Below, in pieces: positions 9,601 through 62,611 of a DNA stretch of 64,000 nucleotides. Position numbers and translations under genes: made by a program. The stretch lies in contig NC_134472.1 of the NCBI RefSeq assembly GCF_964194025.1, positions 66,464,001-66,528,000 on the forward strand, read 5' to 3'. Positions within the stretch are counted from its first letter, which is position 1. The number at the start of each line of letters is the position of its first letter. Source of the stretch: Convolutriloba macropyga (Eukaryota). The notes beneath the pieces are model-generated. The model was not told where the DNA came from. It made no database searches and saw nothing but the letters and a program-made list of their open reading frames with translations.

Positions 9601-12600
9601 ACAATTTTTTATCCTGCAAAAAAGTTCTGAAAAGGAAATTCTGGAATAAAAAAATCCCTTCTCTAATTTTTCTTGTATAAAGGAATTGAAATGAAAAGAA
9701 CTGTAGAACACATAAGCAATTATTTAAAATTTAAATTCATTTCAAAGAAAAATAACTGGAACGCGTAATTGTGTCATCTCTAAAAAATTTGGAACAATTC
9801 AATGAATTTGAGAGATTGTCACTTTATATTAAATGAACAACAGACACTGAACATGATTGGCTCACTACAAATCAGATATTTGAACAGTGGTTTTTTTCAA
9901 TTTCTCCATTAGAGCACGCGGAGCTGTATATCGGACAAATAAAACGAAAAACGATAATTTTTGCGTTAATGAGAACCAACGAGAGAAGAACTCGACCAGA
10001 ACAAAATCCCCAAAATAATGCAAGATAACGAGCCGTCTTGCAAAAGCAGATCTTGCACAGCAGTTAGCATTAATCTTGCAAGATCTTGCGAGTCATCCAT
10101 TCGTTTTACAAGATCAGATCCTGCAGGCTGGGCATTAATCTTACAAGACCTTAAAAGATAACCATTTGTTTTTCACCATCAGATCTGCACATTGTACTTT
10201 ATTCCTGCAAGATCTTGCATGAGAACCACTCATCTAGCAAAATCCATTTTACGGTGAGCATTAATCTTGCAAGATCTAGCAAGTTAACTCTTCGGCTTGG
10301 AAAATGATATTTTGCACGCTGAGTATTAATCTTACAGGATCTTGCAAGATCAGATCTTTCATGGCACGTATTAATCTTGCAAGATGGTCTTTCAATGTTA
10401 ACATTTGTCTTGCAAGATCAGATCTTGCGCGGTGGGCATTAATCTTGCGGGACGATCTTTCAATGTGACCGATTATCTATCAAGAGCAGATCTTGAACGG
10501 TGGGCATTTTTTGCGAGATCTTGAAATAGAGTTACCCGTCTCTCAATATCAGATTCTTGACGGTTAGCACTAATGTCGCACGCTCTAGCAAGTGCTAGTT
10601 AACTATTCGAGAATGTTCGTTGGAAAATGATATTTCTCATGCTGGGTTTTAGGCTTATAAGATCTTTTAAGATAATCACCCATCTTCCAAGATCAGATCT
10701 TGCACGGCACACATTAATCTTGCAAGATGATCTTTCATTGTTAACTTGAATTGCAAGATCAGATCTTGCACTGGGGGCGTTAAAGTTGAAAGAAAAAAAT
10801 ACTAGTCTTGCAAGCCAGGCTTTAATTTTTGAAGATATTGGACTGTATACATTGGTCCCATTAACTTTGCAAGATCTTGCAAGATAACCATTGGGCTAGC
10901 AAGATCAGATCATGACCAGTGGGCATTATTTTTGAAAGATATTTATTCGTAATGCAAGATCAGATCTTGCACAGTGGGCATTAACCTTGCAAGCTCTTGC
11001 AAAAATAACCATTTGTCTTGCAAGATCCGATTTTTTTACGGTGGGCATAAACCTTGCAAGATATTGCAAGGTAATTATTCATCATGCAAGATCAGATCTT
11101 GCACGGTAGGCATTAATTTTGCACACCTTGCAAGATAACCATTTGTCTAGCAAGATGATATCTTTCACGGTAGGCATTAACCTTGCATGATCTAGCAAGG
11201 CAACCATTTGGCTCGGAAAAAGGTATTTTGCACGCTGGCAATAATGTTAAAGATCTAGCAAGATAACCATAAGAACACATCTGGTACAGTGGGAATTAAT
11301 CTTGCAAGATATTCATTCTTCTTGCATGATCAGATCTTACACGCTGAGCTTTATTCTCACAAGATCCTACAAGATAATCAACCGTCTTGCAAGATCAGAT
11401 CTTGCACGGTGGGCATTAATCTTGCAAGAGCTTGCAAGATAAGCATTCGTCTTGCAACATCAGATCTTGCATGGTGGGCATTAATTCATTAATTGTGCAA
11501 GATCTAGCATTATTAAAATTATAGCTAGAGTCGTTCCTAATAATCATCGTGCCTTTACTATGTTGACTGCATTTGAATTTGAGATTGACTTTTACAGACG
11601 TATTTCAGGATCCATAAAATAACTTTTTTTCTGTATCCCGAATTAATAAATCACAGCAAGAAAATTACTATCCTCAATGCGCGAAATGACTAATATTCCA
11701 CAGTCATTCCCGGCTATTATGTGGATTTTAACGGCTTGGAATTATACTCATTTCCCATAATTGCACGTCGAGAACGTTCTGATTCCTTAAAAAACGTTCA
11801 TAGCTCCCATTTCTGAAAATTAAAAAAAACTTCGTCAATATTTATTGTCTAAGTTTGGAAAACGGAAAAAAAGCAATTTGACGGTTATTGGCCTTTTACG
11901 GTCATTGACGGTCATTTGACGGTCACCCTTAAACTACAGGTCAAAAATGATCGTTTTAATAAACATTGGGCAAAAATTTGACATGGCTTAAGTTACTGTG
12001 TTATTAAATGTTTCAGGTATCCGAATGAGAAATGCGAGGCGACATCGGTTGAGAAGTCGAACATGTTGAATCAAGGCACCATGCACTTTGAAAAGGGCAA
12101 CAAGTTTCTTGACTCCTATTTGAAAGTTCAAAATCACTCCTGGACAAAGCAATTCCACCCCGTTGGTCTTGGACCTGTTGCAATGCACACGGCAGCATCC
12201 CGGTTTTTCGGCTACGAAGGCAAACTATCTAGCCCAATGACCAGTAAGATATTTTTTCTTTTCCACGAGTCCGCAAATATGTTATTTTCTAAAATTTTGT
12301 TGCAAAAAGTTTTGTTTGTCCCATTAGGATAAAAACATTAATTTTCATTTTATAGAACAGCGTTTCAATTAAACACGTTGTTCGACGATAACTGTTTTCG
12401 TACTTAGCGCACTTAATTGAATCAAAGATTTCAAAATTTTTTCACCGCTTTAGAGAAAATTTAGAAATTTTTTATAAGAGTGTACTTTACACAAACATCA
12501 CCAAATTGCAACGGGCCATTCGTTCCGTTTCACCCATCATTTTCCAAAATGAATCTTAAAACGTACAAATTTGGCTTTAAATGCGAAATATGGTTACAAA

Positions 12601-31483: not shown

Positions 31484-31867
31484 TCCAAATCGATTCCTAA
31501 TGAGCTCCAAATTATTGTAACTAGTTTATTAATTGAAAGCTTATGGTCGTTTTGACTTCTAAAAATATTTGATTTTTAAATAAATAATGGCTTATTGAAC
31601 TTTGCCTCCATTTTTCTCTTAATTTGGTCAACTTGTAGATTAGTGTCAAAAACGAAAGAATGAATTTAAACTCAGTAGAAAGAAGAAGCATTCTTTCGTT
31701 TTTGACACTAATCTACAAGTTGACCAAATTAAGAGAAAAAATGAGGCAAAGTTCAATAAGCCATTATTTATTTAAAAATCAAATATTTTTAAAAGTCAAA
31801 ATGACCATAAGCTTTCAAGTAATAAACAAGTTAAAATAATTTGGAGCTAATTAGGAATCGATTTGGA
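31484..31867. repeat. Long near-perfect inverted repeat (179-bp arms, 26-nt spacer)
   Basis: Arms 31484-31662 and 31689-31867 are reverse complements with a few mismatches. Confidence 0.92.
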
Positions 31868-37700: not shown

Positions 37701-38003
37701 AACAACCAACACACAAACTTTACAAATAAAGCAAAAACGCGAAAAAAGTGAGAAAAATCGTTTTATTTGTTACGGTAAGAACTGGCCTATCAAATATTAC
37801 AATGTATCCTCGTAGTAAGAAAACCCGCATAAATGTTGTTAATAAAGAGTTCCGCGCGACACATTATTCCAGAAAAGCATAAAAACGGAAAAGGCCATAT
37901 TTATATTAGAGTAATTTGAAATAACTTATTTAAAATGCCCGAAAAACTGTCAACAATTCTATACTACTTTGTCAACCGACATCACAATCTTAATTTTCCT
38001 TGG

Positions 38004-38319
38004 AGTCATGTCGTTAGACCTTGAACAAACTTTTGATTATCGATTGGAATTTAACAAACTTGTGAAATAACTCAATATTGACTTAAAGTTTTAATATTTG
38101 TTTAACAAGCCTCATCATCACTCGAGAAAATTGTTTCTTTATAATCAGTTGAATTAAAGCATTGGAAAATTTACTTATAATAGATTTAACAGTAGATTGA
38201 AGAAGATTGTCGCCCAGCTCTGAAGATCCGCTCGAAGATGCTGAAACCTGAATAAAATGTTTTAAGGGGTGCAAAAACACATAAGCATGCACCAATATTA
38301 TTTTATTAAATACGTTAGT
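38004..38319 (+). repeat. 5' LTR (316 bp)
   Basis: AGTCATGTCG...TACGTTAGT. Differs from the 3' LTR by 9 substitutions and 3 small indels (manual count). AATAAA at 38251-38256. Confidence 0.96.
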
Positions 38320-38337
38320 TGGTGACAGAAAACGGAA
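38320..38337 (+). promoter_or_regulatory. Putative primer-binding site (TGGTGACAGAAAACGGAA)
   Basis: Begins with TGG (complement of tRNA CCA) directly after the 5' LTR. The priming tRNA is not identified. Confidence 0.65.
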
Positions 38338-38853: not shown

Positions 38854-40036
38854 ATGGCACAACCGAACATTAGTCTCAAAGCTTATGGCGGAACTGAGAA
38901 AGAAAGTTTTCATGAGTTTGAGAGACTTCTAAGAAGCATTATAGGCGTCGCAGCCATTGACGCAGGACAGCAAGCCAACTTCTTATATTTACATTTGAAA
39001 GAAGCAGCACTTAGATATTTTCAGACTTTAGATGCAGCAACGAGAGCAGATTTAGACTTAAGCTTAACAGCACTGAGGAATCATTTTTGTAATCCTCAAT
39101 TACAAGAATTACATGTCATTAAGCTTGAAAGCATCAAGTTTGATACTAAAACTGACACACCTGAGAATTTCTTAGTTATCTTGGAAAATATCGCGCTGAG
39201 AGCGTATCCGGATCCAACACCAGCTGTTGTTCCTCTAGCCAATCCAGCACTTGATGCAGATGATGAGAGAGATCGAGTAGAAGCAGCGAATGCCGAGAAT
39301 GCACAAAACTTACTTTTTGCACAAAGAGAACGTGAGCATCAAATTAAGCGCTACTTCAAAAAATGTATGCCGAGTTGACTCAGAGCCAAGTTGCTAGAAC
39401 AACCTGAAACTACAACTGTTGAAGAATTATGTCTATTAGCTCGAAAACAGCTAACTATTCACAATCTCTGTAAAATTGACGATAATGGAGGGAGTTTTCA
39501 GCGAAATGAGTAGCACCATTTCTGAAAACCTAGTTACAGCACTCTCAAAGCTAACACAAACTCAGGAGTCGATGGAAAACAAAGCAAATGCCCTAACAAA
39601 GCAGTTTGAGGAGCAGATACAAGTAAGAGAGCAACAGAGTTCAGGTTCAGGTAGCTCATATAATAACAGAGGTTCAAGAGGTAGATACAGAGGAAATTGA
39701 GGTTATAGAGGAAGATATAACTATCGAGGTAAAAATAATAGAGGACAAGGAAGCTATAATTATCAGAATAACTACCCCACACAACAGTTTGTCCCAGCAC
39801 AGTTCCAGAGTGACGAAAACAGTCAAAACTATAACGCGCAGGCTGAAACACAACCCTCCATACAAATTACTCCACCCGAACCTCAAAACCATATTGTTAC
39901 AACACAGTATGCACAGGTGTTTTGCTATAAGTGTGGTTATCCTAATCATCTTGCCAGTCAATGTTCACTAGGAAGAGGAGGTAGACGTCGAGGCGGAAGT
40001 AATTTCCCATTTCAAAAAGCGCCAAAAAACTATTAA
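38854..40036 (+). pseudogene. gag: gag (disrupted) with RG-rich region and CCHC zinc knuckle
   Basis: ATG at 38854; premature TGA at 39376 and 39698; frameshift near 39475; CYKCGYPNHLASQC (CX2CX4HX4C) at 39923-39964; stop TAA at 40034-40036. Confidence 0.9.
40024..40030 (+). promoter_or_regulatory. -1 ribosomal frameshift slippery heptamer A AAA AAC (gag-pol)
   Basis: In gag phase, just before the gag stop. The -1 frame is open from here into the protease ORF. Confidence 0.8.
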
Positions 40037-43000
40037 AGCCACAAGTTCCGCAAAAGTCCAATTATCATTGTAATAGCTTAGAAAATTCATTTTTAGAATC
40101 TAGAAAAAATTTCATTAATGAACAATTAACTGTAGAAGAAAATCAAGGTGAAGACGCTGAATTTTGCGCAGTTATACCTCTCGAAGGAGATGTCTTGAGT
40201 TACATTAAGTTAGATTTTGGCAAAAATTACAAAAGAAGAGCTCTCATTGATACTGGCTCTTGCGCAAATGCGATTCCTAAAAGTCTGTTAGATGATCTTG
40301 AAAACAAGCAGATAAAAGTTGAATTTGAAAATCCTGATTACACAGTTGTTAAACTTGCCTCAGGGGCAGCAGTTAGAGTGAACCAACAAGCTAAAATAGA
40401 GTTTAGTTTAGGAGATCATCATTTCAATGATTCATTCATTATTTTGCCAAAAATGAATAAAATTATACTGGGCAACTCCTTTTTTCGAAAGCACTCTATT
40501 GATATAAACCCGTCAAACAATCTGATTAAATTGCCCAACATGACGTATCATCTAAATGAAATAAAGCCGAAAAACAAACCCCGGAAAATTTTGAAAAAAC
40601 TGAAAAAATTATCTGTTTTTGCAAATAAAAAACAAGTTTTGAAAGCAAAAACACAGTCAATAATTGAGTGCTACATTCCTGATCAAAATGACCTAAGCCT
40701 TACTAACTGTAGTGGTGTAGTTATTCCTAACAAAAAGTTTGAAGAGAGAACAGAAATAGTTCTCTCATCATCATTGAGTACAGTTGACGAAACAAGAAAA
40801 ATTTATATTTCAGCCGTTAACCCTACGGATCATCAAATCATTGTTTCATACAATACAATAATAGCCAGTTTTGAAATTCTCAACCCAACTCAAGCTGAAA
40901 AACTGATTCAAATTGATCCGCAGCTTTTAGCTCTTGCGAAAATGAGAGATCATGAAAACATAGAAGCTGAACTAAATCAATTGATTCAGGATAAAAATTT
41001 CAATCAATCGAATGAACGTCCAAAACCAGAATACGAAAAACTATGGTTTCCAACTCCTGAAACCTGTCCTAACCCTGAAATGTTGTCCCCACTTGAACGT
41101 GAAATTTTTGATCAAATCCAAAATTTTCAAATGTTAGAAAAAATTGATCCTAAAGCAAGCAGTGAATACAGAGCACAATTCCTTCAACAATTCTCCTGGG
41201 AAAACTCCGTCCTTGAAAAGGGCCAAAAATTGCAAGTTGAGGAGTTATTAGTGGAATTTTCTGACATATTTGCGAAACATCGATTTGATGTTGGTTTTAA
41301 CACCGAACTCAAGATAAGGTTGACACCAGAACATGAACTTCCTGTTTACGTCCAAAGTCCACAAACGCCCATTCATTTGCGTGATGAACTTCTCGTTGAA
41401 CTTGATTTAATGCATTATTATAATTTAATAACAACCTTGTCACATTCAAAATACAGTAGTCCAATATTTGCTCAACGAAAGGAATCTGGTAGATTGCGAA
41501 TTTTAATTGACTTAAGGCGTATAAACCATCTATTAAGAAATGATTACATAAATAGTAATTTTCCAATTTCAAATATGAGTGATGCATCAAACCATTTTGC
41601 TTGCAAAACACTGATAAACAAATTTGATTGCTCACAAGCATACCATTGTGTACAAATGGCAGATGATCGCTCAGTTCAATTATTGGCATTTAACTATGCC
41701 TCTCGCACTTATGCCTATAAATGTCTAGCTCAAGGTCTAAGCAAATCAGTGACAGGATTTAGTGCCTTCATTACCCACTATTTAGATCCATGCTTAGCAG
41801 CTAACAATTGTACGCAGTACATGGATGACAAAGGCAGTGCCGTGAAAAACTTCGATGCGCTCATACCAAACCTAAGAAAAATTTTTGAGTGCATAAGGAG
41901 ATCAGGATTGAAACTATCTCCCGGTAAATGCGAAATTGGCACACAAAAAATCAAATTCCTTGGAAAGTACATCACACCCGATGGAGTATCAACTGAAAAT
42001 TCAAAAAAAGAAAAATTCCTTAAAAACTTGAAAATGCCTCAAACAGTCAAACAAGTAAAGCGTCTGGTAGGATTCCTTCAACTTTGGCGTGACTTTATTC
42101 AAACCTAGCTCAAAAACTGATGCCTTTCTACGAATTACTACGAAAAGACCAACAAGAGATGATAACTGAAAGACATGAAAAAAATCTTGAAATTTTGAAA
42201 AATGATTTGGTGAAAGCAACTAGCCTGACATTACGCTTAGCGAAACCTGGTCTACAGTATGTCTTGCTGTGCGATGCAAGCTACTATGGAACTGGTTTTG
42301 TTCTTATGATTGAAGATTACATCAAAACTCAAAACAAACAAAAGAAAAGTTATGCCCCGGTTGCTTTTGGCTCCAGACTATTTAATGCATCACAATTAAA
42401 ATTTTCAGTTTATTATAAGGAGTTTCTTGGACTATATTTTGCTCAAGATCATTTCTCTCATTTTATTTGGGGAACAGAAAAACCAGTTATCGTTCTTACA
42501 GATAACAAAAGCTAAACTCAATTTTTCCAAGCAAAAACTATTCCACCATCGGTTTGGAATTGCTTGGACCGGCTAATGTCATATAACTTGGTAATTGCTC
42601 ATATACCAGGTCGTGCAAACTACGCAGCTGATTTTTTATCACGTATACAAAGTGATCTGTCAACAACCCTGCAGTTAAAATTGACAGATAGAATTGCAGT
42701 ACGTGAGATTGAAATAGAATCAATAGCTAAAACACCGGATGCATCGCTAAGCTCAGTTGACTATATTGACAAATGTTTGATCAGCAAATATCTGCAATTG
42801 ATGAAAACACAATCACCAAATTAAAACAAAGTGGACTCAGCATTGACATTTTAGAACAAATAGAAAATCACAGATATTTGAACAATGCAAACAATGATGA
42901 AGTTCATGGACTAATACGCCTAATAAACAAAACTTGTCAAATAAATGAAAATTTGATGTTAGACCCAAAAGATCATTTGATCGACCTTGTGGAAAGAACC

Positions 43001-45597
43001 GATCATTTAGGTTTAAAAGACGAACAACAAAAGGATGAGACAATAAAAAGAGTAATTTCATGGAAAACTCGGGAACGAGTTGAAGATCTAACCTATGCAT
43101 CGTTTCAACTGAAAAAGTATTGAAAGCAATTTAATAGGTTGGTACTTCAAAACGGAGTTCTTTTCAGAAAATTTTTTGACGACACAGGAAAAATCAAAAC
43201 TCTGCAATTTTGTCTACCAAAACATCTATGGAGAGAAGTAGTTTATAGGCTGCATAATTCAAAGCTAGCAAACATGTGGGCATTGCAAAAACAGTGCAAG
43301 AGTTCAGAAAAAGATTTTACTTTCCCGGCTTCACAGAATATTTGATCACGATGATAAAAAACTGTCTTACATGTATTCAAACAAAAGCAATTTCAAACAG
43401 AGCACTTAGAACTTTTCTCCAGCCAGTTTCATCTCTGCAGTCTTTTCCTGGAGATATGATGCAAATCGATTTCGTGGGACCATTTAAGTCACCAGTTTAC
43501 AAGTACGCGTTAACAGGCATTGATGTGTTTTCTAAATATTTATTTCAAAACCACTAACAAGAGCAAGTGCACAAAAGGTAGCAACTGAATTAGCAACGAT
43601 TTTCTTCACACATAGTTACATTCCACATACGATTGTTTCAGATCTCGGAACAAATTTTGTGTCTGAATTAATGCATGAACTTTGCAAATTGTTAGAAATC
43701 AAGATAAACATGCTACATTAAAACACGCTAAAACAGTAGGGGTTGTGGAAAGATCACATGCAGCACTAAAAAGAATTTTAAAGTTAAACACAGATGAACA
43801 ATGGTCAAACTGGCATCTCAACGTACCATTAGCCACATTTATTCACAACACATATTACTTGTCAATAGGATGCACACCAACTGCTATTTTTCATGGACGA
43901 GAGCCCATCAAACCACTTGACATCCGATTTAATAAAAAAAACATCCAACTAATGGATCCAAAATCCAATTTTGTGACAGAGTTGCAAGATGCCACGCAAA
44001 TATTATTTTCACAAAACAAATGCAAACTAGTGGAAGCTTATCACAAGTTCAGAAAGTACTATGATGAAAAAGCGTACGCAAATCCTTTGCAGGAACACAG
44101 TTACTGTCTTTTACTCAACCCAAAATTTTCTCATCAGTCAGACTTTGGAAGCAAATCAATGCAGATATGGTTACCGTTGTATCGAGTTGAAAGAGGTTTA
44201 ACCAATTGGAACTATCTGATCAGAAAAATCGGCACGAATTTTACACAATGTGTACATAGAGTTCGACTACGAACCTATGAACCAAGCGAACCACCCATTG
44301 ACATTCAGGACGTGAGTGAGGCAAAATTTACACAAGATCCTCGTTTAGGAAAATACAGACAGGAACCCGAACTATTCGACAACAAAATACCAAACTTGTT
44401 GAATCATAACTTCATGGATGAAGCGCATCAATCAGACATATCCCCTATTTCAGAAGACCCAGTTACCGTAACATATCAATTTCCAGTTGCTGCAAGATTG
44501 GCACCGCAACCTAGACCAGCTCCAGTTGCACCTGCAGCAGCCCCAATTGAAATAGAACTTCAGGAACCAATTGAAGTTGTGGAACACCCACAGCCAGTCC
44601 AAAATGACCAAGTACACGAACCAGAGAACATTTTACCCAACGTAGTCTTTCCCTTTATTGAGTTTCCGGAAATTGAAAGGCAGAGACCAAATAGAGACAA
44701 TACAAACAATATGGCATTTAATGACAACGCTAAAGAACAGACAAATATTTTTCCCAATGAAACTAGAGAAAACCGCTCTTACGCCAAGACGTTCTCAAAA
44801 CAAACATGTCCAGTTTAGCCCGACATCTCATATACCTGCTCCTGAAAAACAAACAAGAGCTAAACCTAGACAGTTCGTAACGATAGATGGAAAAATCCTT
44901 ACTCCAATTAACTTAAGCCCAGGAGCTAAGAAAGACAACATTAAAAAATCCTATAGAAGCGACATGGAGAGAACCATTTTTCACCCAGGACCAAGACCAT
45001 CTAGAGCCACTAAAATGGATCAAAAACGAAGTGAAGAAGTTAAAAACACCAGGCAAGATACTGAGAAAGATCAAGCCCAAAGTTCAAGCACAGTAAAACC
45101 AATCGCACAAGTTGTATCTAGATTGAGAGGCAAGAAAGGCGGTGTTAATACAATAGAAAATCAAAAGCTTAGAGTTTTCTTTAGCCAGTCTAGCATCTCC
45201 AGTTTTGAGAACTCAATAGTACAATTGTTCGATAATCACGTTAAGGATTTGAGCTTTGAAAAACTTGGAATCCTAATAAGTGAGAAAGAGAGAGAGAGAG
45301 AGAGAATTAATTAGGAAAACTGACATGCCCAACGGTACAGTTGTATCAATTTGGGACTCAATTCGCAATCGTTATATCTACATTTTCAATGTAGATACTC
45401 TTGAATCGAGACCAATTTACCAGTCTATTAGGATGTGTTTCGATAACCTGAAAAAAGTAGTAGAGAAAAACAATGATGAAGTTATAGCAATCCCAAAATC
45501 AGAAATAAACTCAAAAGAATTTAGTTGGCCTACTCTGCTTAGAGTAGTAGTTAATGTTTTTTACCTCAGCAAATTGGATCTAATTTTCTTCGTTTAA
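40030..45597 (+). pseudogene. pol: pol (protease, RT, RNase H, integrase, C-terminal extension and macrodomain), disrupted
   Basis: ALIDTGS (DTG at 40249-40257); RT motifs SKYSSPIF, LRILIDLRRIN and YMDD (41818-41829); RNase H LCDAS; integrase HHCC plus QIDFVGP, IDVFSKY, IVSDLGTNF and VERSH. Split over several ORFs by stops and frameshifts. Confidence 0.93.
45160..45597 (+). pseudogene. TARG1/OARD1-like macrodomain at the Pol C-terminus
   Basis: GTVVSIWDSIRNRYIYIFNVDTLESRPIYQSIRMCFDNLKKVVEKNNDEVIAIPKSEINSKEFSWPTLLRVVVNVFYLSKLDLIFFV follows the OARD1 pattern GEVAVL..DGRYIYYLITK.....KPTYENLQKSLEAMK.HC.KNGV..LSMPRIGCGLDRLQWENV...IEEVF....I.I.VY (from memory). Frameshift in an (AG)n tract at 45287-45305. 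Confidence 0.7.
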
Positions 45598-46466
45598 AAA
45601 AATACAGAAAAACAAAAAATATATTATTGCACTAGAAACTCATCAAAATCACTTCATTCAATTACTCTATCAAATCGACAGTAGCAACTCTAGCTATCCA
45701 AAATAGATTGAATCGATGATCACAAAAATAACAACAGAAAAGCAATCGAATGTCATAAATTACATGTATTAAGATAAGTTATAGACTCAATGTGCCACAA
45801 AAAAAAATTGTAAAAGACTTTCTACAATTTTTAGCTAGCGATTGCCACCTCCTTTGACAAGAAAGCCACTCAAGAATTTTGCTCACCCAATTCGCAAATT
45901 TGAAAGAAGAACAGGTACAAAATGTTTCCTCCAATTTATTAAGATTATGAATAAACATAATTTTAATCACTTTTCCATAGTTTGAAAAATTATCAAGAAC
46001 CAGTCCTCATCAAGGCATTAGGCAACTCAGCACGAGTACACATGCCAATTTTGCTCACCCAATTATCAAAATTTAAAGATATACAAGCAAAAAAAATTTT
46101 CCCCATGTATTAATATAGGCTATAGACATGTAAATTATAACTTTTTTGTGATAACTATACCTGATGAAAAAATTATTAGCTCAGTGGATACATCTTAATA
46201 CCGGCCCATTATGAGCCAAATTTTATTAGTTAACAATGAATGCTCAGGAAATTACAAAAAAAAACATTTTTTAGCCAAATTTGAAACATTCGAAAACAAT
46301 AAAACTGCAAAAAACTATTAAAAGAAACACAATACTTTAAGAAAAACAAAGAAGAACACGAATCCCATATCACAGAAAACGAAATCAGAACACGAATCAC
46401 CATAGCAACTGTGTTACACATTTTCAACTTAAAAAAACGCAAAATTTTCAAAATATTTCACTAATT

Positions 46467-47083
46467 TTACGGACCACTTACCGGTTGTTTCATATTACGT
46501 TCCTTACAATCACCATCAATAGCAATTACACTCGTCATCGGGTTCCATACATTATTTTTCCTCTTCTCTTGAATTTTCATACCGACTGATAGAAGTGAAG
46601 CACAGCCATTATATAACTTCACCGTTATAACGCAATGTAACCAGCCGTATAGCAGGTATACTGTGTCACCCACACACATTGCCGACAGTAAAAAATCTTG
46701 CCGTCATAACGTTCTAAGCATTCCATGAAAGTGCTCGCCCGAACGAATTTTCTTTCAAGCACTCCAAATTCAGCAGATGGTGGGAAGAAAAACCAGTGTT
46801 TTTCACCCGAACCGTACAAAGTGATCAAACAATCAGTAGCCTCCATGAAGTCGCTATGCCATCTCGTAAAGTTCGGCTTATCGACAGTCAATAAGTACCC
46901 TCTGGACAGCGTTGAAATCTCAGAACCATTGGGAATAGTGTACCTCAAAAAATCAGGTTTTGTTATTTCGTCAAATGAAAATAAACCCATATAAACATTT
47001 GCACCGGAGTCAGTTAGTCGTTTTCCAGAAACCATGAACCGGTTTTCAAAGTTTTCGATTTTTACTAACCGATCAATGCAGCG
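46467..47083 (-). pseudogene. JmjC-domain (Fe(II)/2-oxoglutarate dioxygenase) cargo gene, antisense within the LTR element; one 2-nt frameshift
   Basis: ORFs 47035-46625 and 46679-46467 join when one dinucleotide is removed from the (CA)4 tract at 46671-46678. The result is YLLTVDKPNFTRWHSDF...GSGEKHWFFFPPS...FYCRQCVGDTVYLLYGWLHCVIT, with the HxD...H triad and the 2OG-binding Thr and Lys present. Confidence 0.85.
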
Positions 47084-47583
47084 CTAAAACAAATTTTTTT
47101 ACAAAAACAAATTTTTCTACAAGGAAATGTAGGTCTGATGATTTTTAAAAGACAACAGTTAACATGATTATCAAAAACGTGAATTGAGAAACTATCACCT
47201 AATGATTTTTGTCCTTGTATTGAACAGCTTTGCAACCAGCGACCAACGCAGGAACGGTTCTTTCAATATCATGCACTGAACCGTAACTAGTGACAGCTTT
47301 GGTGAGAGAAGCAGCATTATCGCAAATGGTTAATAGAACATCGGAATTTTGATTAGATCGCGTTGATCTCTTCACACTTTTCTCTGGAAAAATCGAAACC
47401 TCTTGTTAATAATTTTTTAGAAAAATCATTGAACTTTAGATTGAGCGTCCATCAAGACCTAGTAGAAACAAAATTAAAGAGTACAAAAGTCAATTAGCCT
47501 TAAAAAGTGGAAGAGCAAAACACTAAAACAACTCTACAAGTTTAAAGAAGTTCTACAAGTTCAAAGTCCAAGTTCACTTAAAA

Positions 47584-47868
47584 CTAGTATCCTAGCTCAG
47601 TCAGTTTGTAGACTGCAAAAATGAAGCAGAATTGAATCTGCTTACAGCAGCAACAAACGCTGAGGAGTACAACAATTAGTCCCAGCCAATTGAAGTCGTC
47701 CTCAGCTGGCCCACATACAATAGGTCGAGCCTCCGACCACACCCTTCGTCCATTGAATTCGTAATAAGTGGCATTAACACAGCAGTTGAGAACATGGCCA
47801 CGCCAAATCACACTTGTGCAACAATAGGCAGCACTCACAAAAGCAAGAAGCAAAACAATTTTCAACAT
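47584..47868 (-). CDS. Small Cys-rich predicted type I membrane protein (94 aa), antisense cargo of the LTR element
   Basis: Intact ATG-to-stop ORF: signal peptide MLKIVLLLAFVSAAYC, Cys-containing ectodomain with N-glycosylation sequon NAT, hydrophobic segment WLGLIVVLLSV followed by CCCC. It lies just downstream of a TATA+Inr. Confidence 0.65.
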   Translation of the reverse strand: MLKIVLLLAFVSAAYCCTSVIWRGHVLNCCVNATYYEFNGRRVWSEARPIVCGPAEDDFNWLGLIVVLLSVCCCCKQIQFCFIFAVYKLTELGY

Positions 47869-47888
47869 GTTTCAACTGAAAATGGGTA

Positions 47889-47934
47889 ACTTACCAAGTA
47901 ACTGAACTCAACACAATCACATTACCTGTTTATA
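47889..47934 (-). promoter_or_regulatory. Internal antisense Pol II core promoter (TATAAA at -31, Inr TCAGTT) followed by a consensus splice donor
   Basis: Minus strand: TATAAA at 47934-47929, TCAGTT at 47905-47900 (A+1 = 47903), G|GTAAGT with GT starting at 47894. Confidence 0.6.
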
Positions 47935-48018
47935 CTCACAGAAAACTAATTGTTTTGAAGATTTGAATCTGAAACACAAAAAGTGTAAGTTAGCACGTAA
48001 AACAAAATTTTATTTAGA

Positions 48019-50251
48019 ATGAAGACGAGGCTTATACCCTTACTTATTCTACTTCTCCCCCCAATCAATATGAACTCATTCTATCAAAAAGACGATTATG
48101 ACGACATTCTCGAGAAAGGAATCATCTTTAACGAGGAAACCAAAATTTTATTGGCCGAAAAGTTTGTTCCAGTCCAGTTTCTGATACCATTCCCTTCATT
48201 CAATTTCTCAATGAAATCAGATGTCGAGAAAATGTTATCAAAGCTACAAGCGATGTGGAATCTTCCAGCTGTGTCATGCAAACTGGATTTCTCAACAAGC
48301 TTTAACACGAACTCGACACCATATAATATAAATTGGATTTTGAATCAAACAACACATCAAATTGAAAAATCACGACAAGCAGTATCTCTCATGCGAAACG
48401 AAACGGCAACATTCTTACAAACCGAATCAGATGAACAGAAAAGAGTCAAAAGAGGAGCCCATGTAGGAGCTCTGGCTATGGCCGGAATTGGTCCATTTGG
48501 TAGCGGAATCGTTACGGGGAGTGCAGGCGGATGCGGTGCAACAGGAATATTTGGAAGTTGCCAGGACGAAGCAAAAGCAAACGCTCAAAACATTGAACAG
48601 CTAAACATCTATACAGAAGCGTTGACAGAGTACGTTGTACAAATAAAAGAAGAGACAAAAAATAAATTTTTTATGATCAGCAACGAATTGGCAGACATCC
48701 GCACTACACAAAAACAAATGAGCGAGACGCAGAATAAAATTTGGAGAATAATTGAGCAGCAGTTTCAAGTAATTGAAGACAACCTTCACATACTCAGAGA
48801 CTGTAATCAAATGCTGTTCTCGAATCAGCAGATCAACTTTAACTTTGACACCGCTGCTTATTGCTAACACTCCTATACGCCGACGTAAAAAGCTACAGGT
48901 CAGCTCTGTACGCTTACCGACTGAATTTGCTGAACTCGATTCCAACTCTCCTTCAAAAACATCTTCCAATGTCTCTAGTGCCACGCGCTTCTCTGATGGC
49001 AATACTAGAAAGCGTTGTTCGCGAACAGTATAAAGCAGCAGACAGACTATCGTTAGCCATTACGACTAGTGACCTTATGTCATATTATGATGCAAAACTA
49101 CTCCGGGACGTGATAACAGTCGAACAAGGTCTAATTGTGACCTTAGCGATACCACTTGCATCACGTCAAACAGTATTTACAGTTTATAATGCGCAGACAG
49201 TACCATTGCCTCAGCCAGAGCCTCAGATGGCAGTTAAATGGAGCATCGAAGCACCAAATCTTGCAATATCTGAGGATCAGATGGAATCCATCCCGTTGAC
49301 TGTAAGCCAATTTGAACAATGCTTAGGGTCATCAAAATATAGAATTTGTCACCAAGCTGTAGCAACTCAGCCAAGTCATGGATCGTGCTTCGCGACACTG
49401 TTTTTCAGATTATTCCTAGAAGCGATTCGTGAATGCGAAATGGAAGTCATATACCTACCTAATCAAGTTCAAGCTCAGAACTTAGGCTATGGAATTTGGT
49501 TGTTGACATCAGCTACAGAAAATTACAATTTGCGCAAAACATCTATAGATTCAGTTCACCCGACTCGTAGTGAACTAATACGCGGCTGTAAGATCTGCAT
49601 CATGACTATAGACTGTGGATACCAGCTATTAGGCCATATGATAAAGATCAGAGCCGATCTTTGGAGTTGTGAGAAGATACCAGCAAAGAAAATTCAGGTC
49701 AAACTAGCCGACCCCTTGCAGTTTTTACTTGGTGAACTACCATCCATAGAAAACTTACCATATTTTGAAACAAAAACTGTAGCAGGTGTAAATCTAATGC
49801 GAAAAGTTCGAGAAAAACTGCTGATGAATCCAGTGATAGCTGATAATAACCATCTCGCAGAAATAGCAAAGCCGATCGCACAAGAAATGAAAATGTTCAA
49901 ACCATCCCTTATCAAGGAATTCAGATCTTACGTCCCTATCAAAATATCACTTACATTGACTGTTATTGTTTTTATCTTGAATGTTTTTCTTCACGTTCTC
50001 TGTCTCTGGCTTTATCATAGATTTCGAATCATTCGAAAATTTGTCCCATTTTTCTTATGAGCAAAAACGAAAAAATGGAATGTAAACATGTATTAGGAGT
50101 TAACTCTGATGATCAATCAGTTATTCAAAATCTCCCATCAAAAATGAAAGACCGCTATCATATCATGCTTCAATCTGAACTGAACGAAATGTCTAGTGAT
50201 ACTCAATCAGAGATTGATATTCAAAAAAACTCAAAAAACACCTTTGCCTAA
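48019..50251 (+). pseudogene. env: env, class I fusion glycoprotein (F-type architecture), frameshifted at about 48860 and 50050
   Basis: Signal peptide; furin site RVKR (48442-48453) followed directly by a Gly/Ala-rich fusion peptide GAHVGALAMAGIGPFGSGIVTG; long heptad-like helix; Cys-rich region; C-terminal TM ISLTLTVIVFILNVFLHVLCLWLY. Splice-acceptor-like TTTTATTTAG ends at 48017, just before the ATG. Confidence 0.88.
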
Positions 50252-50629: not shown

Positions 50630-50946
50630 AGTCATGTCGTTAGACCTTGAACAAACTTTTGATTATCGATTGGAATTTAACAAATTTGTGAAATAACTCA
50701 ATATTGACTTCTAAAGTTCTAATATTTGTTTAATAAGCCTCATCATCACTCGAGAAAATTGTTTCTTTATAATCAATTGAATTAAAGCATTGGAAAACTT
50801 ACTTATAATAGATTTAACAGTAGATTGAAGAAGATTGTCGCCCAGCTCTGAAGATCCGCTCGAAGCTCCTGAAACCTTAATAAAATGTTTTAAGGGGTGC
50901 AAAAACACAAGCATGCAACAATATTAATTTTATTAAATACGTTAGT
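50630..50946 (+). repeat. 3' LTR (317 bp)
   Basis: Direct repeat of 38004-38319, followed by the TSD CTTGG. Confidence 0.96.
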
Positions 50947-51803
50947 CTTGGCGAGATCTAACTTTGTTGCGAGTAACGATTCATTCTCCAGTACCAACAT
51001 CTGCAGCAAACGATTCGGCGGATAAGATGACATCGCGTTCAAAATGCTTTACAAAATTCAAAAAGCAAGCTAATAAAGATTATAATGTTTGGAAACTAAA
51101 TTTATTTTTCAGAATCTGACTGTTTTCTCGAGGAGTTCTAGTTGATTGTTTTTTATGATACTCCAGTTTTGGTTCTGAATTTTTGGATGATGCACCCTGT
51201 TCAGTTCTCCCAGCTGTTGAGATTAGATAAAACTTGTCATGTTTATAATTGAAATTGAACGACTTAGTTCGGATAACTAAACTCAGCTTGCGGGCTGACT
51301 CTTTGTCTCCTTTATTCCCAAATTTTTTGTCAAGGTCCAAAAAATTGACGCAAGATCTGAAGGGAAGACACAATTTCTTCTCTTAAATCAGCTGCTAAAA
51401 TTCTTCTTAAGTTAGCAGCTTACATTCAGAATGAGAGATATTTAGATAACGCAAAAATCAAGAAGTCAAGCGTGCTAAAAAGTCACTAGAAGAGTCAGAC
51501 GAACAAATCCCTAAAGGACCAATAGGACTAATACAATGGCTGCAAACGTAGTTTGAGAGCAATAATTAATCAGTTTATAACGAGATATTTCATGAAACAG
51601 GAAATAAGCACTTTGTAATCTTCCAAGTCACAAAATATCAAAACATATGATGTATTTTCTGTTTCAGTTTAGTTCGAATGTGGTCTTTAGTTCACTTGAT
51701 CTTAGTTACAATAGCTAATATATATCTTCTTCGCAAATTCTATTTTGATATGATAAGCAATGTCACACATCGTTAAATGATCAGTTTATATCCGAAATAA
51801 TGC

Positions 51804-53879
51804 TCAAACATCACTGATTCCCGTATCGTCGGTTCCCGATTGTGCCGACGAATGGGCCCTGTTCCTCAATTTCAAATTCTTGCTCAGGTTCGAGTTAAAA
51901 TCCGGGTTTCTAATGTAAGCCGGGGTCTTTTTCTTAATAACTAAATCCGGGTTGTCCATCATTTCACAGAGCAAAGTCTGGTGATCTTGTTCCAGAGGGG
52001 CTATGCTAATGTCTCGTGTTGCTCTGAATTCTCCACAGTTGTTCAAATGTTCGTTTTCAAGTCGGAAATAATTCCAAAAGAACCTCCGAAAAACGGTCAA
52101 AATCGCCCGAATTGTGCTCAAGTATAAACCATCCATAAATGGTGCCAGAAAGTTGACAACCTTAGGTACCCACGAAAATCTTAAAATGAAGTCCTGAACT
52201 ATAGCGAAGTAGTAGAAGGCCCGATTTGGGTAAACCATTTCGTCCCGTAGACAGGGCGCATCTTTATTACAGCTGAACAAACCCCAATCGTGTTTTATAT
52301 CCCAATATAAGGAATAAATACTGGAACATGTTTTAACAACAGAGTAAGAACATATCCAAGCTATGCTATAATACCCATACTGCTCCTTATATATTTTAAT
52401 ACCGCCATAAAGGCCGTAAGCTACCATACGTATGGCATATTTTCCCGAGTTTGCGATGTGTGGAAAACATTTCTTAGTTGAGTGGTACCTTCGAAGACAT
52501 TGAGCGAACCGGAACCATGCAGGAAGCATGCTGACTACAACACGCAACCCATACGAATATCTTGCGCACATTTCGTTCTCATAATTCCCAGAATATCCAT
52601 CACTTTTCCAATCCAGTTCGAAAGCGTAAAAACAAATGAAAAACTCAAAATCCATGAACACTTTGTTCAAACTGTTTAACTGGTCAGCGAGCCAGAAGTC
52701 AGGGAAAGTTACGAAGAAATAGGGAGCGGCAAAAACCCGAAATAGGTACTTAATAAACCAAAATCGGGCATTCTTTTTAAACACTGGGAGTGGCAAAAAC
52801 AATAGAAGCAGAAATAAACAAACACAAATTAAAGGACTAATATATGCTTTCATCCCTATAACTGGTGAAAACAAGAAGAACAAAATACTTATACACCACA
52901 AAGTGCCCAGAGCGAACGCAACCTCTAATAAATCAGGATACGATATATGTTTTCTAGGATCAATGCCAAAAATCAAAACATGATTAACTCCATATTTACT
53001 CCACCCGTAAACATTCGCTCCCAATAAACCAACAAATAACACAACCAAAAACAATCCTCGGTAAATCGTTACGTAAGCATGCAAATGAATTTTGTGATAT
53101 TTTAACAATTGCACTGCTGACAAAATGATTGCAACAAAAAGTGTGACGAAAATGCCCAAAAACAGCCCGACCAGGAATGTTTTCTTTGGCGCTTGTTTCT
53201 CGGTAAGCGGCGGAACGCGTAATCTCTTCATGGCGCGGGTTCGATCCCCGCCCTCTAACTCTTGTATATAAGTTTCTTCACAATCTCGGATGAGCAAATC
53301 AATTTGCTTATTTGTACCGAACGGCGCTTTTTCAACTTCGCGAGCACGAAAATCGGCTCCACTTGCAGAGTCGCAAATTTTATCATGTTTCTTTAAAATT
53401 TTTCGAAATGCCGTTGAATTCAAACTTTGATAATTTTGAAGCAGAACCAGGCTCAAGTAAAACTCGCTGAATGCGACTTTTAAGTCTGATATTTTGGGTC
53501 GCGTGTCTTTAGCTATCCCCGGCTGCAACTTTGTACTCAAATTTCGAGTCGAATTTTTCTTTTTCACCTCGCTGTTGTTTCGATCATGTTGCTGCTTAGC
53601 CATTCGCAACTCGGCCTGTAAAGTTGCACTTTTTCTATGAGCCTCCGCCAACTTTTCGGTAAAAAACATGTTGACTTTATTCAATTCTAGCTGGCATCTT
53701 GCAAAGAACTTCTGATCAAACTTGGCGTAATATTTTTTAATTGTTTCTTCATCCGAAATATCAGCCGGTGGTGAATTTTCTTGGGCCGAGTAAAGAAGAT
53801 CTTTCAAGTCTTCATAAGCAACATACTGAGTTCTCCACTCAGGTGTTATGTGGGCATTCAAATGGGCAGCAAACTTCAT
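51804..53879 (-). CDS. XPR1: XPR1/SYG1 SPX-EXS phosphate exporter (691 aa, intronless CDS)
   Basis: MKFAAHLNAHITPEWRTQYVAYEDLK (SPX), LLQNYQSLNSTAFRKILKKHDK, AMKRLRVPPL, GVNHVLIF, DFWLADQLNSL, RFAQCLRRY, RRFFWNYFRLENEHLNNCGEFRA. Confidence 0.97.
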   Translation of the reverse strand: MKFAAHLNAHITPEWRTQYVAYEDLKDLLYSAQENSPPADISDEETIKKYYAKFDQKFFARCQLELNKVNMFFTEKLAEAHRKSATLQAELRMAKQQHDRNNSEVKKKNSTRNLSTKLQPGIAKDTRPKISDLKVAFSEFYLSLVLLQNYQSLNSTAFRKILKKHDKICDSASGADFRAREVEKAPFGTNKQIDLLIRDCEETYIQELEGGDRTRAMKRLRVPPLTEKQAPKKTFLVGLFLGIFVTLFVAIILSAVQLLKYHKIHLHAYVTIYRGLFLVVLFVGLLGANVYGWSKYGVNHVLIFGIDPRKHISYPDLLEVAFALGTLWCISILFFLFSPVIGMKAYISPLICVCLFLLLLFLPLPVFKKNARFWFIKYLFRVFAAPYFFVTFPDFWLADQLNSLNKVFMDFEFFICFYAFELDWKSDGYSGNYENEMCARYSYGLRVVVSMLPAWFRFAQCLRRYHSTKKCFPHIANSGKYAIRMVAYGLYGGIKIYKEQYGYYSIAWICSYSVVKTCSSIYSLYWDIKHDWGLFSCNKDAPCLRDEMVYPNRAFYYFAIVQDFILRFSWVPKVVNFLAPFMDGLYLSTIRAILTVFRRFFWNYFRLENEHLNNCGEFRATRDISIAPLEQDHQTLLCEMMDNPDLVIKKKTPAYIRNPDFNSNLSKNLKLRNRAHSSAQSGTDDTGISDV

Positions 53880-61466: not shown

Positions 61467-62567
61467 TCAAAGATATGCACCAAACATAACTGACATGAAA
61501 AGAGCAACTGCAACTTTAGTGTTGTCTATGAACTTTTTCATACAGTCCTCATTGTTTTCAGGCTTTAACGTTTGCACTTGTTTAATTAAGTAGAGTGAAA
61601 TCATCCCCACGCCGAAATAGTAACTTGGACCTAGGTCAGCCAGTTTTCCGGATAGAAATAAGCCGGAACTCGTCACAGCTGCAAACCCGTACAAATATTT
61701 GTCAACATCCGGCCCAAATTTAATGGCTGTAGACTTGACTCCTATCAGCATATCGTCTTTCTTGTCTTGTAGAGCGTATATCGTGTCATAGAAAATTGTC
61801 CATGACATAAGCGAGGCATACATAGCACATACAGGGACACTTAAACTTCCGGTTGTAGCTGTGACGCCCATTAAGAGGCCATAATTCATGCACAACCCCA
61901 AAAATGCTTGCGGATAATAAGTTATTCTTTTCATGTACGGGTAGGTTGCCACTAAAGGCAATGCTAAGAATCCAAGCCCGATTGTTGCGCTGTTTAAACT
62001 GAGAAGTATACCCAATGCTGCAACGCTTTGGACACCCCCAAAAATGACCGCTTGTAGGATTTTAAGGTCGCCAGAAGCTAAAGGTCGTGACATAGTTCTT
62101 TGAACACTCTTATCAAGTTCACTGTCCCAAATATCATTGATAGTACACCCAATGCTTCTCATTAGAATAGCACCCAAGCAAAATTTAGCCGAGATCCAAA
62201 ATCCAGGAATCCCACCGCATCCCAAAGCCAGACCTGTTAGCCCTGGCCACATCAAAAGCCAGAATCCGACTGGTTTGTCAACTCTGGCCAACTTCAAGTA
62301 CGGCTGTGCATATCTAGGAGCAGAGTCGACTAATTTAGCACCAGCTTGAGATATTGAAGTACTCTGAACTTTTTCTAAATATTTTGGAATAATTTGAATC
62401 GCTTTCGAGTATGATTTCAAATATGACTTTTGGTCAGCAAGTAATCGTTTAGGTCTATAAGACGTGCTAACGACGCTGCACACTCTAACAGCATCATGTT
62501 TGCTGCAGGACAATTGCCAATACAGTCCTAATTTACTTCTTAGATAAGCTCTCTGAATTAACACCAT
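61467..62567 (-). CDS. COQ2: 4-hydroxybenzoate polyprenyltransferase, mitochondrial (UbiA family; 366 aa, intronless CDS)
   Basis: PYLKLARVDKPVGFWLLMWP, MRSIGCTINDIWDSELDKSVQRTMSRPLASG, YPYMKRITYYPQAFLG and WTIFYDTIYALQDKKDD..IGVKSTA. The Arg/Ser-rich N-terminus is consistent with a transit peptide. Confidence 0.96.
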   Translation of the reverse strand: MVLIQRAYLRSKLGLYWQLSCSKHDAVRVCSVVSTSYRPKRLLADQKSYLKSYSKAIQIIPKYLEKVQSTSISQAGAKLVDSAPRYAQPYLKLARVDKPVGFWLLMWPGLTGLALGCGGIPGFWISAKFCLGAILMRSIGCTINDIWDSELDKSVQRTMSRPLASGDLKILQAVIFGGVQSVAALGILLSLNSATIGLGFLALPLVATYPYMKRITYYPQAFLGLCMNYGLLMGVTATTGSLSVPVCAMYASLMSWTIFYDTIYALQDKKDDMLIGVKSTAIKFGPDVDKYLYGFAAVTSSGLFLSGKLADLGPSYYFGVGMISLYLIKQVQTLKPENNEDCMKKFIDNTKVAVALFMSVMFGAYL

Positions 62568-62611
62568 AACTTCTGCAATTATAGAATAATTAGTAAATAT
62601 GCAAACTGATT

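Follow-up and report, generated by a model that had tools for sequence, protein, structure and literature searches.

A 12.9-kb retroelement in the genome of Convolutriloba macropyga, a decayed env-bearing element of the Ty3/gypsy type with long terminal repeats (LTRs), was found to carry an additional gene for a JmjC-domain protein, which lies between pol and env on the antisense strand and appears to be a real, spliced gene borne by the element. The element is situated in a stretch of 64,000 nucleotides, called here the window (NCBI RefSeq assembly GCF_964194025.1, contig NC_134472.1, positions 66,464,001 to 66,528,000 of the forward strand), and all positions below are counted from its first letter. 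In our opinion, this is probably an accessory gene of an env-bearing Ty3/gypsy lineage, the product of which would act against silencing. Repressive histone methylation restrains retrotransposons, and little is known of the means by which animal elements might themselves counteract it; a heritable JmjC gene in such a lineage is a concrete, assayable candidate. The particular copy in the window is dead: its JmjC gene is broken by an in-frame stop that closes exon 2 and by a frameshift near 46675, and it has no identifiable start codon. The frame of exon 3 stays open in sibling copies.

Putative promoter, exons and introns of the antisense gene

The second intron (47199 to 47084 on the minus strand) and the coding exon preceding it can be inferred with great confidence. 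The frame 47405-47202 in exon 2 shows 41% identity over 59 amino acids (aa) to the N-terminus of the homologous protein P0006 (E 2e-9). In three groups of relatives (P0006, P0064/67/150 and P0149), an exon-2-like block is followed by 24–27 unrelated residues and then by the beginning of the exon-3 frame, as would be expected from the reading through of an intron. These inserts start with V in all three groups, as an in-frame GT donor would give, and the residue directly before exon 3 is Q in five of the seven groups extending upstream of it, as with a CAG acceptor read in frame; one of the other two groups has Y there and one is not alignable. The stretch before this Q is mostly hydrophobic and encoded by T-rich DNA. 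The nominal probability of Q in five of seven groups is 6e-6, a significance inflated by shared descent. The GC content of the intron is 25.9% against 40.5% on either side. Because the V/Q boundaries coincide with GT and AG and with the dip in GC content, 47084 is considered to be the end of a conserved second intron of phase 0, which is preceded by a coding exon.

These data bear on the preliminary description of the region, in which a 9-nt leader was supposed to be spliced directly to position 47083 to make JmjC. Both splice sites of this variant are good, and many predicted relatives begin just past the acceptor 47084. However, such starts are probably the output of a prokaryotic gene caller where the acceptor is read as a stop, and the direct splice would omit a coding exon that P0006, P0064 and P0149 retain. 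Moreover, the leader contains no ATG, and no in-frame ATG follows until 47035. Direct splicing was rejected as the main form on account of the skipped exon and is very improbable. The acceptor itself, TTTGTTTTAG ending at 47084, is conserved across the family. Four features had escaped the preliminary description: the donor at 47199 and the coding exon that it terminates, another candidate acceptor at 47384, and a donor of consensus type at 46481.

The first intron would begin at the donor G/GTAAGT (47894), which follows the leader, and end either at TTTCTACTAG (47459), with an ATG at 47452, or at 47384. The GC content is 40.5% in 47384-47200 versus 29.7% in 47458-47385. A piece around the acceptor 47459 (about 47439-47494) is kept in one diverged contig, among the matches listed. 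At the other end of the gene, the similarity of homologues stops at G-P-V-S or L-V-S in several clusters, with unrelated tails after it, and this motif is lacking in other clusters. The coincidence of this stop with the donor 46481 suggests a third intron.

A putative core promoter precedes the leader. The A of an initiator (Inr) at 47903 is located 31 nt from the T of TATAAA at 47934, the sole minus-strand TATAAA in 45600-48100. According to 300 Markov simulations, a strand as long as the element should contain TATAAA with Inr at +28 to +34 on average 0.093 times by chance, and the pair with a donor within 60 nt was found in none of the simulations (0/300). Only two TATA-Inr pairs were found on both strands of the window, and only that of the antisense unit is followed by a donor. 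The composite is rare by chance, with chance odds somewhat flattered by fitting the pattern after the site had been seen. Transcription from this predicted promoter is likely, judging from these motifs. The hexamer AATAAA (46227-46222) is not significant alone, since three copies occur on the minus strand in 45600-48100 and 16 on the plus strand of the element. All these signals, the ATG of env at 48019, the 94-aa open reading frame (ORF) of the first intron and both acceptors were located at the positions claimed for them earlier. The proposal of an antisense unit independent of the LTRs, placed back-to-back with env and coding for JmjC through splicing, is likewise supported by its sequence features.

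The antisense TATA is 85 nt from the start of env. A 24-nt stretch upstream of it (47953-47976) includes a 13-mer (47959-47971) that has a near-identical counterpart with the same kind of internal inverted repeat at 47628-47640, in the 94-aa ORF. Both 13-mers sit in short pieces conserved by one diverged contig, among the matches listed, and this stretch with its 13-mer is a candidate regulatory site. Two stretches bounded by GT and AG, both exactly 33 nt long, were also noticed, 47985-48017 on the plus strand before the ATG of env, carrying the only plus-strand GTAAGT of the element, and 47645-47613 on the minus strand within the 94-aa ORF; both are possible mini-introns. By analogy with the Oikopleura elements Tor3b/4b, env might have its own internal promoter. 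A scan of the metagenome for the TATA-Inr-donor pattern gave 118 loci, none of which (0/118) matched JmjC, env, the 94-aa ORF or the DNA of the region.

The JmjC protein and its probable association with env

The JmjC frame of the window, with X at the frameshift, gave weak matches to JmjC and to PHF2/PHF8. Ten homologues with 42–92% identity were found, all in ENA contigs. A profile of seven homologues matched PHF2, PHF8 and KDM7A with E from 2e-7 to 7e-6 and retrieved 90 representatives at E <= 0.001. An earlier model of the protein, built from seven sequences, had a pLDDT of 44 and was not used for the fold search. A sibling protein modelled from an alignment of 58 sequences reached 88.8, with PHF8, KDM7A, PHF2 and KDM2A as the best fold matches. 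The KDM7/PHF8/PHF2/KDM2 proteins thus led the fold search, as they did two sequence-profile searches; the grouping with KDM2/KDM7 comes from this ranking of best hits, and the Pfam JmjC scores of family members are all below the cut-off. P0149 alone gave no match in PDB. Among 33 aligned relatives, hand-picked and mostly long, with fragments left out, H-x-D and the 2-oxoglutarate (2OG) lysine were each found in 32 and the distal histidine in 29, and 28 relatives possess the full triad. The antisense product is predicted to be a compact JmjC protein of about 260 aa, of the KDM7/PHF8/KDM2 type but devoid of reader domains.

The representatives retrieved with the profile include further compact proteins with JmjC as their only domain and with intact ligands (P0073-P0133; 235–301 aa, about 20–25% identity), from Logan, ENA and NCBI data. 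One cluster of this set, P0090, has nine members, mostly on long contigs. Mobile elements of other kinds may carry these proteins as cargo.

Association with env was studied by comparing members of JmjC and env clusters through contigs of equal size. Nine JmjC clusters and ten env clusters, the latter from among 179 env homologues, were looked up, with a listing of 15 members for three of the env clusters. The table obtained is block-diagonal: contigs of equal size were found in four JmjC/env pairs, for at least 5 of 6, at least 6 of 10, at least 3 of 6 and at least 4 of 5 members. Off the diagonal, there were two cross-matches, on contigs that apparently hold a pair of elements, and the remaining 85 cells were empty. 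One contig size common to JmjC and env is only 6846 bp. Three of the four matched env clusters had been chosen because their representative already matched, and the real test therefore consists of the further members of these three clusters (4/4, 2/5 and 3/14) together with the fourth cluster. Besides, for five of the nine JmjC clusters no match was present among the ten env clusters looked up, and equal size demonstrates neither that JmjC and env share a contig nor that they are adjacent. These three points, like those collected in the next section, weigh against our interpretation.

Identities of JmjC and env to the subfamily of the window fall in step (64/71, 51/53 and 32/52%). One diverged contig, whose joints have equal depth in all four runs and which was read as one contig, keeps, in the same order, pieces at acceptor 1, at the 3' end of the 94-aa ORF, at the site upstream of TATA and in env, among the matches listed. 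JmjC is very probably linked to env in four subfamilies. These indirect data are consistent with long vertical inheritance of the two genes together, and JmjC looks like inherited cargo rather than a one-off insertion. Relatives were also sought in viral contigs and metagenome contigs, and none were found there.

A fragment of a host gene or a nested element, inserted into the present copy or a recent ancestor of it and now decaying there as a passenger, would explain why the window copy is broken and why it has introns, typical of host genes. Against such an origin are the retained ligands, the open exon-3 frames of siblings and the fact that JmjC is paired with env in four subfamilies, in which its identity falls to about 30%, and we regard it as scarcely probable. 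A nested DNA transposon was rejected, as convincing terminal inverted repeats were not seen around the cassette.

Proposed function, alternatives and known systems

The following scheme can be suggested for our interpretation of the gene as a spliced antisense accessory gene. The internal TATA/Inr promoter near the start of env would drive a minus-strand transcript; removal of intron 1, intron 2 and probably the third intron, starting from 46481, would give an mRNA for an Fe(II)/2OG-dependent JmjC enzyme. This enzyme would most likely serve to erase methyl-lysine marks of the repressive kind, thereby opposing the silencing of the element by the host. For histone demethylation as the anti-silencing activity, the chances seem evenly balanced.

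Elements of this type are copied via RNA, so introns of the sense strand are lost, and introns and poly(A) sites in antisense orientation are ignored. The antisense introns and poly(A) site would be unseen during processing of the plus-strand genomic RNA and would survive each retrotransposition. The antisense orientation of the gene and its conserved intron may be explained in this way. Antisense placement would thus enable an element that multiplies by reverse transcription to retain an intron-rich gene, and surveys restricted to gag, pol and env may overlook spliced antisense genes in the gap between pol and env.

A number of points speak against the interpretation as a whole. Similarity to KDM7 is remote (13–18% identity, TM scores of about 0.45–0.58), the E values of the hydroxylases FIH, TYW5, JMJD5 and JMJD6 in the fold search differ from those of the best matches by about two orders of magnitude at most, and no PHD or CXXC reader was seen by Pfam in exons 2–3 or in the relatives scanned. 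In the gene model, the start codon of exon 2 is not identifiable in the window copy, the donor of intron 2 is weak, and a profile-profile match of an alignment that included exon 2 (hhalign against 12 distant JmjC proteins of 235–301 aa) covered the core only and did not extend over exon 2. TATA, Inr and donor are known from this one copy, and the case for transcription is built on nucleotide motifs.

The lack of PHD/CXXC readers and the remoteness of KDM7 mean that the substrate may not be a histone. The same spliced cargo could hydroxylate proteins or RNA, repair RNA or proteins of the element, or have a non-catalytic role. The matching of hydroxylases to the structural model agrees with this, and, according to the accessible part of PMC11244446, JmjC domains have many functions. 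On the other hand, KDM7/PHF8/PHF2/KDM2 are ranked highest in both sequence-profile and fold searches, the ligands are conserved, and the KDM4-like enzymes of giant viruses described in the same text also lack readers. A non-histone or non-catalytic role is, in our opinion, unlikely.

The 94-aa ORF lies wholly within intron 1. It begins at the first ATG of the putative transcript, 35 nt past +1, and could be translated from this ATG if intron 1 were retained. Its predicted product has, in order, a signal-peptide-like N-terminus, a short ectodomain with cysteines, a single transmembrane stretch and a cysteine cluster, with a hydropathy peak at residues 57–80 besides the N-terminal one. When the 436-nt intron was simulated 5000 times, an ATG-initiated ORF of at least 94 codons appeared in 0.4% of the cases (p ~0.004), and the GC content of the ORF is 44.6% versus 30–35% in the flanks. 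Whether a small Cys-rich surface protein arises by intron retention and the active histone demethylase by splicing, as the two products of one antisense gene, is another matter, and such a scheme is unlikely, if slightly less so than a non-histone role; production of the 94-aa protein by intron retention, taken alone, is somewhat doubtful.

It is also quite possible, though not favoured, that JmjC is the sole gene, the 94-aa ORF being a mere by-product of its intron, or that the two belong to separate genes or RNAs and there is no splice switch. No homologue of the ORF was found among proteins of 51–165 aa, and ESM Atlas returned only DUF2650 at 0.77, a lead with low recognition (1728). The conserved piece of the ORF shares the 13-mer with the site upstream of TATA, and its conservation may therefore be regulatory. 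T-rich strands readily yield hydrophobic ORFs, and RNA retaining intron 1 would bear an early stop and, within this intron, no AATAAA. The length, position, GC content and ordered architecture of the ORF argue the other way, and the blank homologue search is weak because the gene caller missed the ORF on the contig of the window too. Identity as a fusogen of the FAST type was rejected, as neither an MG myristoylation motif nor a polybasic patch is present.

The comparison with complex retroviruses made earlier appears less apt than that with plant antisense ORFs and with chromatin enzymes borne by transposons or viruses. The antisense promoter of human T-cell leukaemia virus (HTLV) is inside the 3' LTR, whereas the motifs described here are 2.7 kb inside the element. 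The comparisons with published systems below follow the accessible parts of the papers cited. Antisense additional ORFs (aORFs) of plant gypsy elements include gene23 of maize Grande, RIRE2 and TRP28 of Retand; of these, gene23 is equipped with a promoter of its own, and its product is nuclear (PMC7264820, PMC11963269). As in these elements, an antisense gene occurs here in the internal region after pol and in many copies, the orientation having been read in the window copy. The plant aORFs, which code for TRP28 or for unknown proteins, occupy the interval from pol to the 3' LTR, whereas the animal gene is situated between pol and an F-type env, contains introns and encodes a recognisable enzyme. 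Pfam showed no TRP28 domain in the window proteins or in the JmjC relatives scanned, and "jmj" is absent from the main text of both PMC7264820 and PMC11963269.

As a functional precedent, the best analogy seems to be provided by the KDM4-like JmjC genes that endogenized giant viruses carry in Amoebidium and that were proposed to oppose silencing (PMC11244446). They also are reader-less, multi-exon JmjC genes in a genomic parasite, but this parasite is a DNA virus, the enzyme is of the KDM4 type, and intron-stripping reverse transcription is not involved. TET/JBP enzymes are carried by fungal DNA transposons, and no retrotransposon with TET/JBP was found according to the accessible part of PMC12730594.

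DNMT and MBD are reportedly borne by retrotransposons. The carriers of TET/JBP, DNMT and MBD resemble the present element in having an epigenetic enzyme that is probably self-serving, but their proteins act on or read DNA methylation. Human PHF8, PHF2, KDM7A and KDM2A have the H-x-D...H ligands and the 2OG lysine in common with the family of the window, at the low identity given above; PHD or CXXC modules were not seen in the window product.

The arrangement LTR-gag-pol-env with an F-type env is that of errantiviruses (PMC13524379), and an internal, LTR-independent promoter upstream of env is known in Oikopleura Tor3b/4b (PMC4402516); the latter acts in the sense direction and drives env, whereas the promoter considered here is antisense. 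"Jmj" and "antisense" do not occur in the main text of PMC13524379, nor does "jmj" in its seven text supplements. The 94-aa ORF can be compared with the sORF2/FAST-like proteins of Drosophila MDG1, small single-pass membrane proteins of 63–107 aa encoded by gypsy elements (PMC11952523). It is likewise short, single-pass and encoded by a gypsy-type element, but has a signal-peptide-like start, no myristoylation or polybasic features and an antisense orientation, and its element possesses env.

Plant antisense ORFs with their own promoter, the internal env promoter of Tor and epigenetic enzymes in DNA transposons or giant viruses are thus already known. No JmjC encoded by a retrotransposon was found in the literature covered, which excludes most subscription papers; the fusion table of 10.1101/2021.11.30.470311 could list some.

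The host element and other features of the window

The element fits the env-bearing Ty3/gypsy elements surveyed, as far as the accessible text goes, in PMC13524379. Its two LTRs agree at 305 of 319 columns and are flanked by CTTGG, a target-site duplication of 5 bp (37999-38003 and 50947-50951); a start resembling a primer-binding site, a polypurine tract and, after pol, an F-type env are present as well. If the LTRs are bounded by CTTGG, their ends are AGT at both termini, not TG...CA. Pfam domains follow the order zinc knuckle, protease, reverse transcriptase and RNase H; the region after RNase H is integrase-like by position and inspection, without a Pfam match. Coordinates are collected in Table 1.

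Table 1. Positions of the antisense unit and of its host element in the window
Feature	Position	Strand	Remarks
5' LTR	38004..38319	+	primer-binding-site-like TGG start at 38320
gag-pol	38854..45314	+	many broken frames; zf-CCHC, Asp_protease_2, RVT_1, RT_RNaseH (Pfam)
Macro-domain-like piece after pol	45280..45597	+	ESM Atlas first match Macro 0.92, 194/256 features
Candidate poly(A) signal AATAAA of the antisense unit	46222..46227	-	weak alone
Third consensus donor CG/GTAAGT	46476..46481	-	near end of JmjC frame; candidate acceptors end at 46428, 46305
Exon 3 (predicted), JmjC core	46482..47083	-	H-x-D, K, distal H; GC 40.5%; frameshift near 46675
Intron 2 (predicted)	47084..47199	-	116 nt, phase 0, GT-AG, weak donor GTGATA
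Exon 2 (predicted)	47200..47458	-	starts at 47458 or 47383; codes N-terminal part of JmjC from about 47375
Intron 1 (predicted)	47459..47894	-	donor 47894; acceptor 47459 or 47384; contains 94-aa ORF
94-aa ORF	47584..47868	-	predicted membrane protein; possible 33-nt mini-intron 47645-47613
Exon 1 (predicted)	47895..47903	-	9-nt leader from predicted +1
Putative core promoter	47900..47934	-	TATAAA 47934-47929, Inr TCAGTT 47905-47900
24-nt stretch upstream of TATA	47953..47976		kept in diverged contig; inverted repeat AGATT-N2-AATCT
F-type env	48019..50060	+	two frames; preceded by acceptor-like plus-strand site ending 48017
3' LTR	50630..50946	+	polypurine tract before it

The env homologue P0155, with 59% identity to that of the window, matches Baculo_F above the cut-off (E 3.6e-7). 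It is the only one of four env homologues scanned to do so, and the env pieces of the window itself gave no such match. A search for env homologues revealed 179 relatives, nearly all in ENA contigs among the matches listed and many in multi-member clusters, which indicates, at the sequence level, a very large radiation of elements with F-type env.

The macro-domain-like piece after pol is parted from the upstream frame by a GA repeat, and it showed no sequence match in Pfam or PDB. It is possibly a second counter-defence module of the same element. In the interval that separates it from the antisense unit, at the end of the latter, three degenerate repeat copies with a period of about 170 nt occupy 45764-46132.

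Directly after the element, an intronless SPX-EXS (XPR1-like) gene is located on the minus strand (51804-53879), and an intronless prenyltransferase gene, COQ2-like by inspection, lies farther on the same strand (61467-62609). Elsewhere in the window, a 21-nt tandem array (7157-7492), a degenerate satellite with a unit of about 65 nt (10011-11532) and a 179-nt inverted repeat with 96% identity (31484-31867), resembling a miniature inverted-repeat transposable element, were observed.

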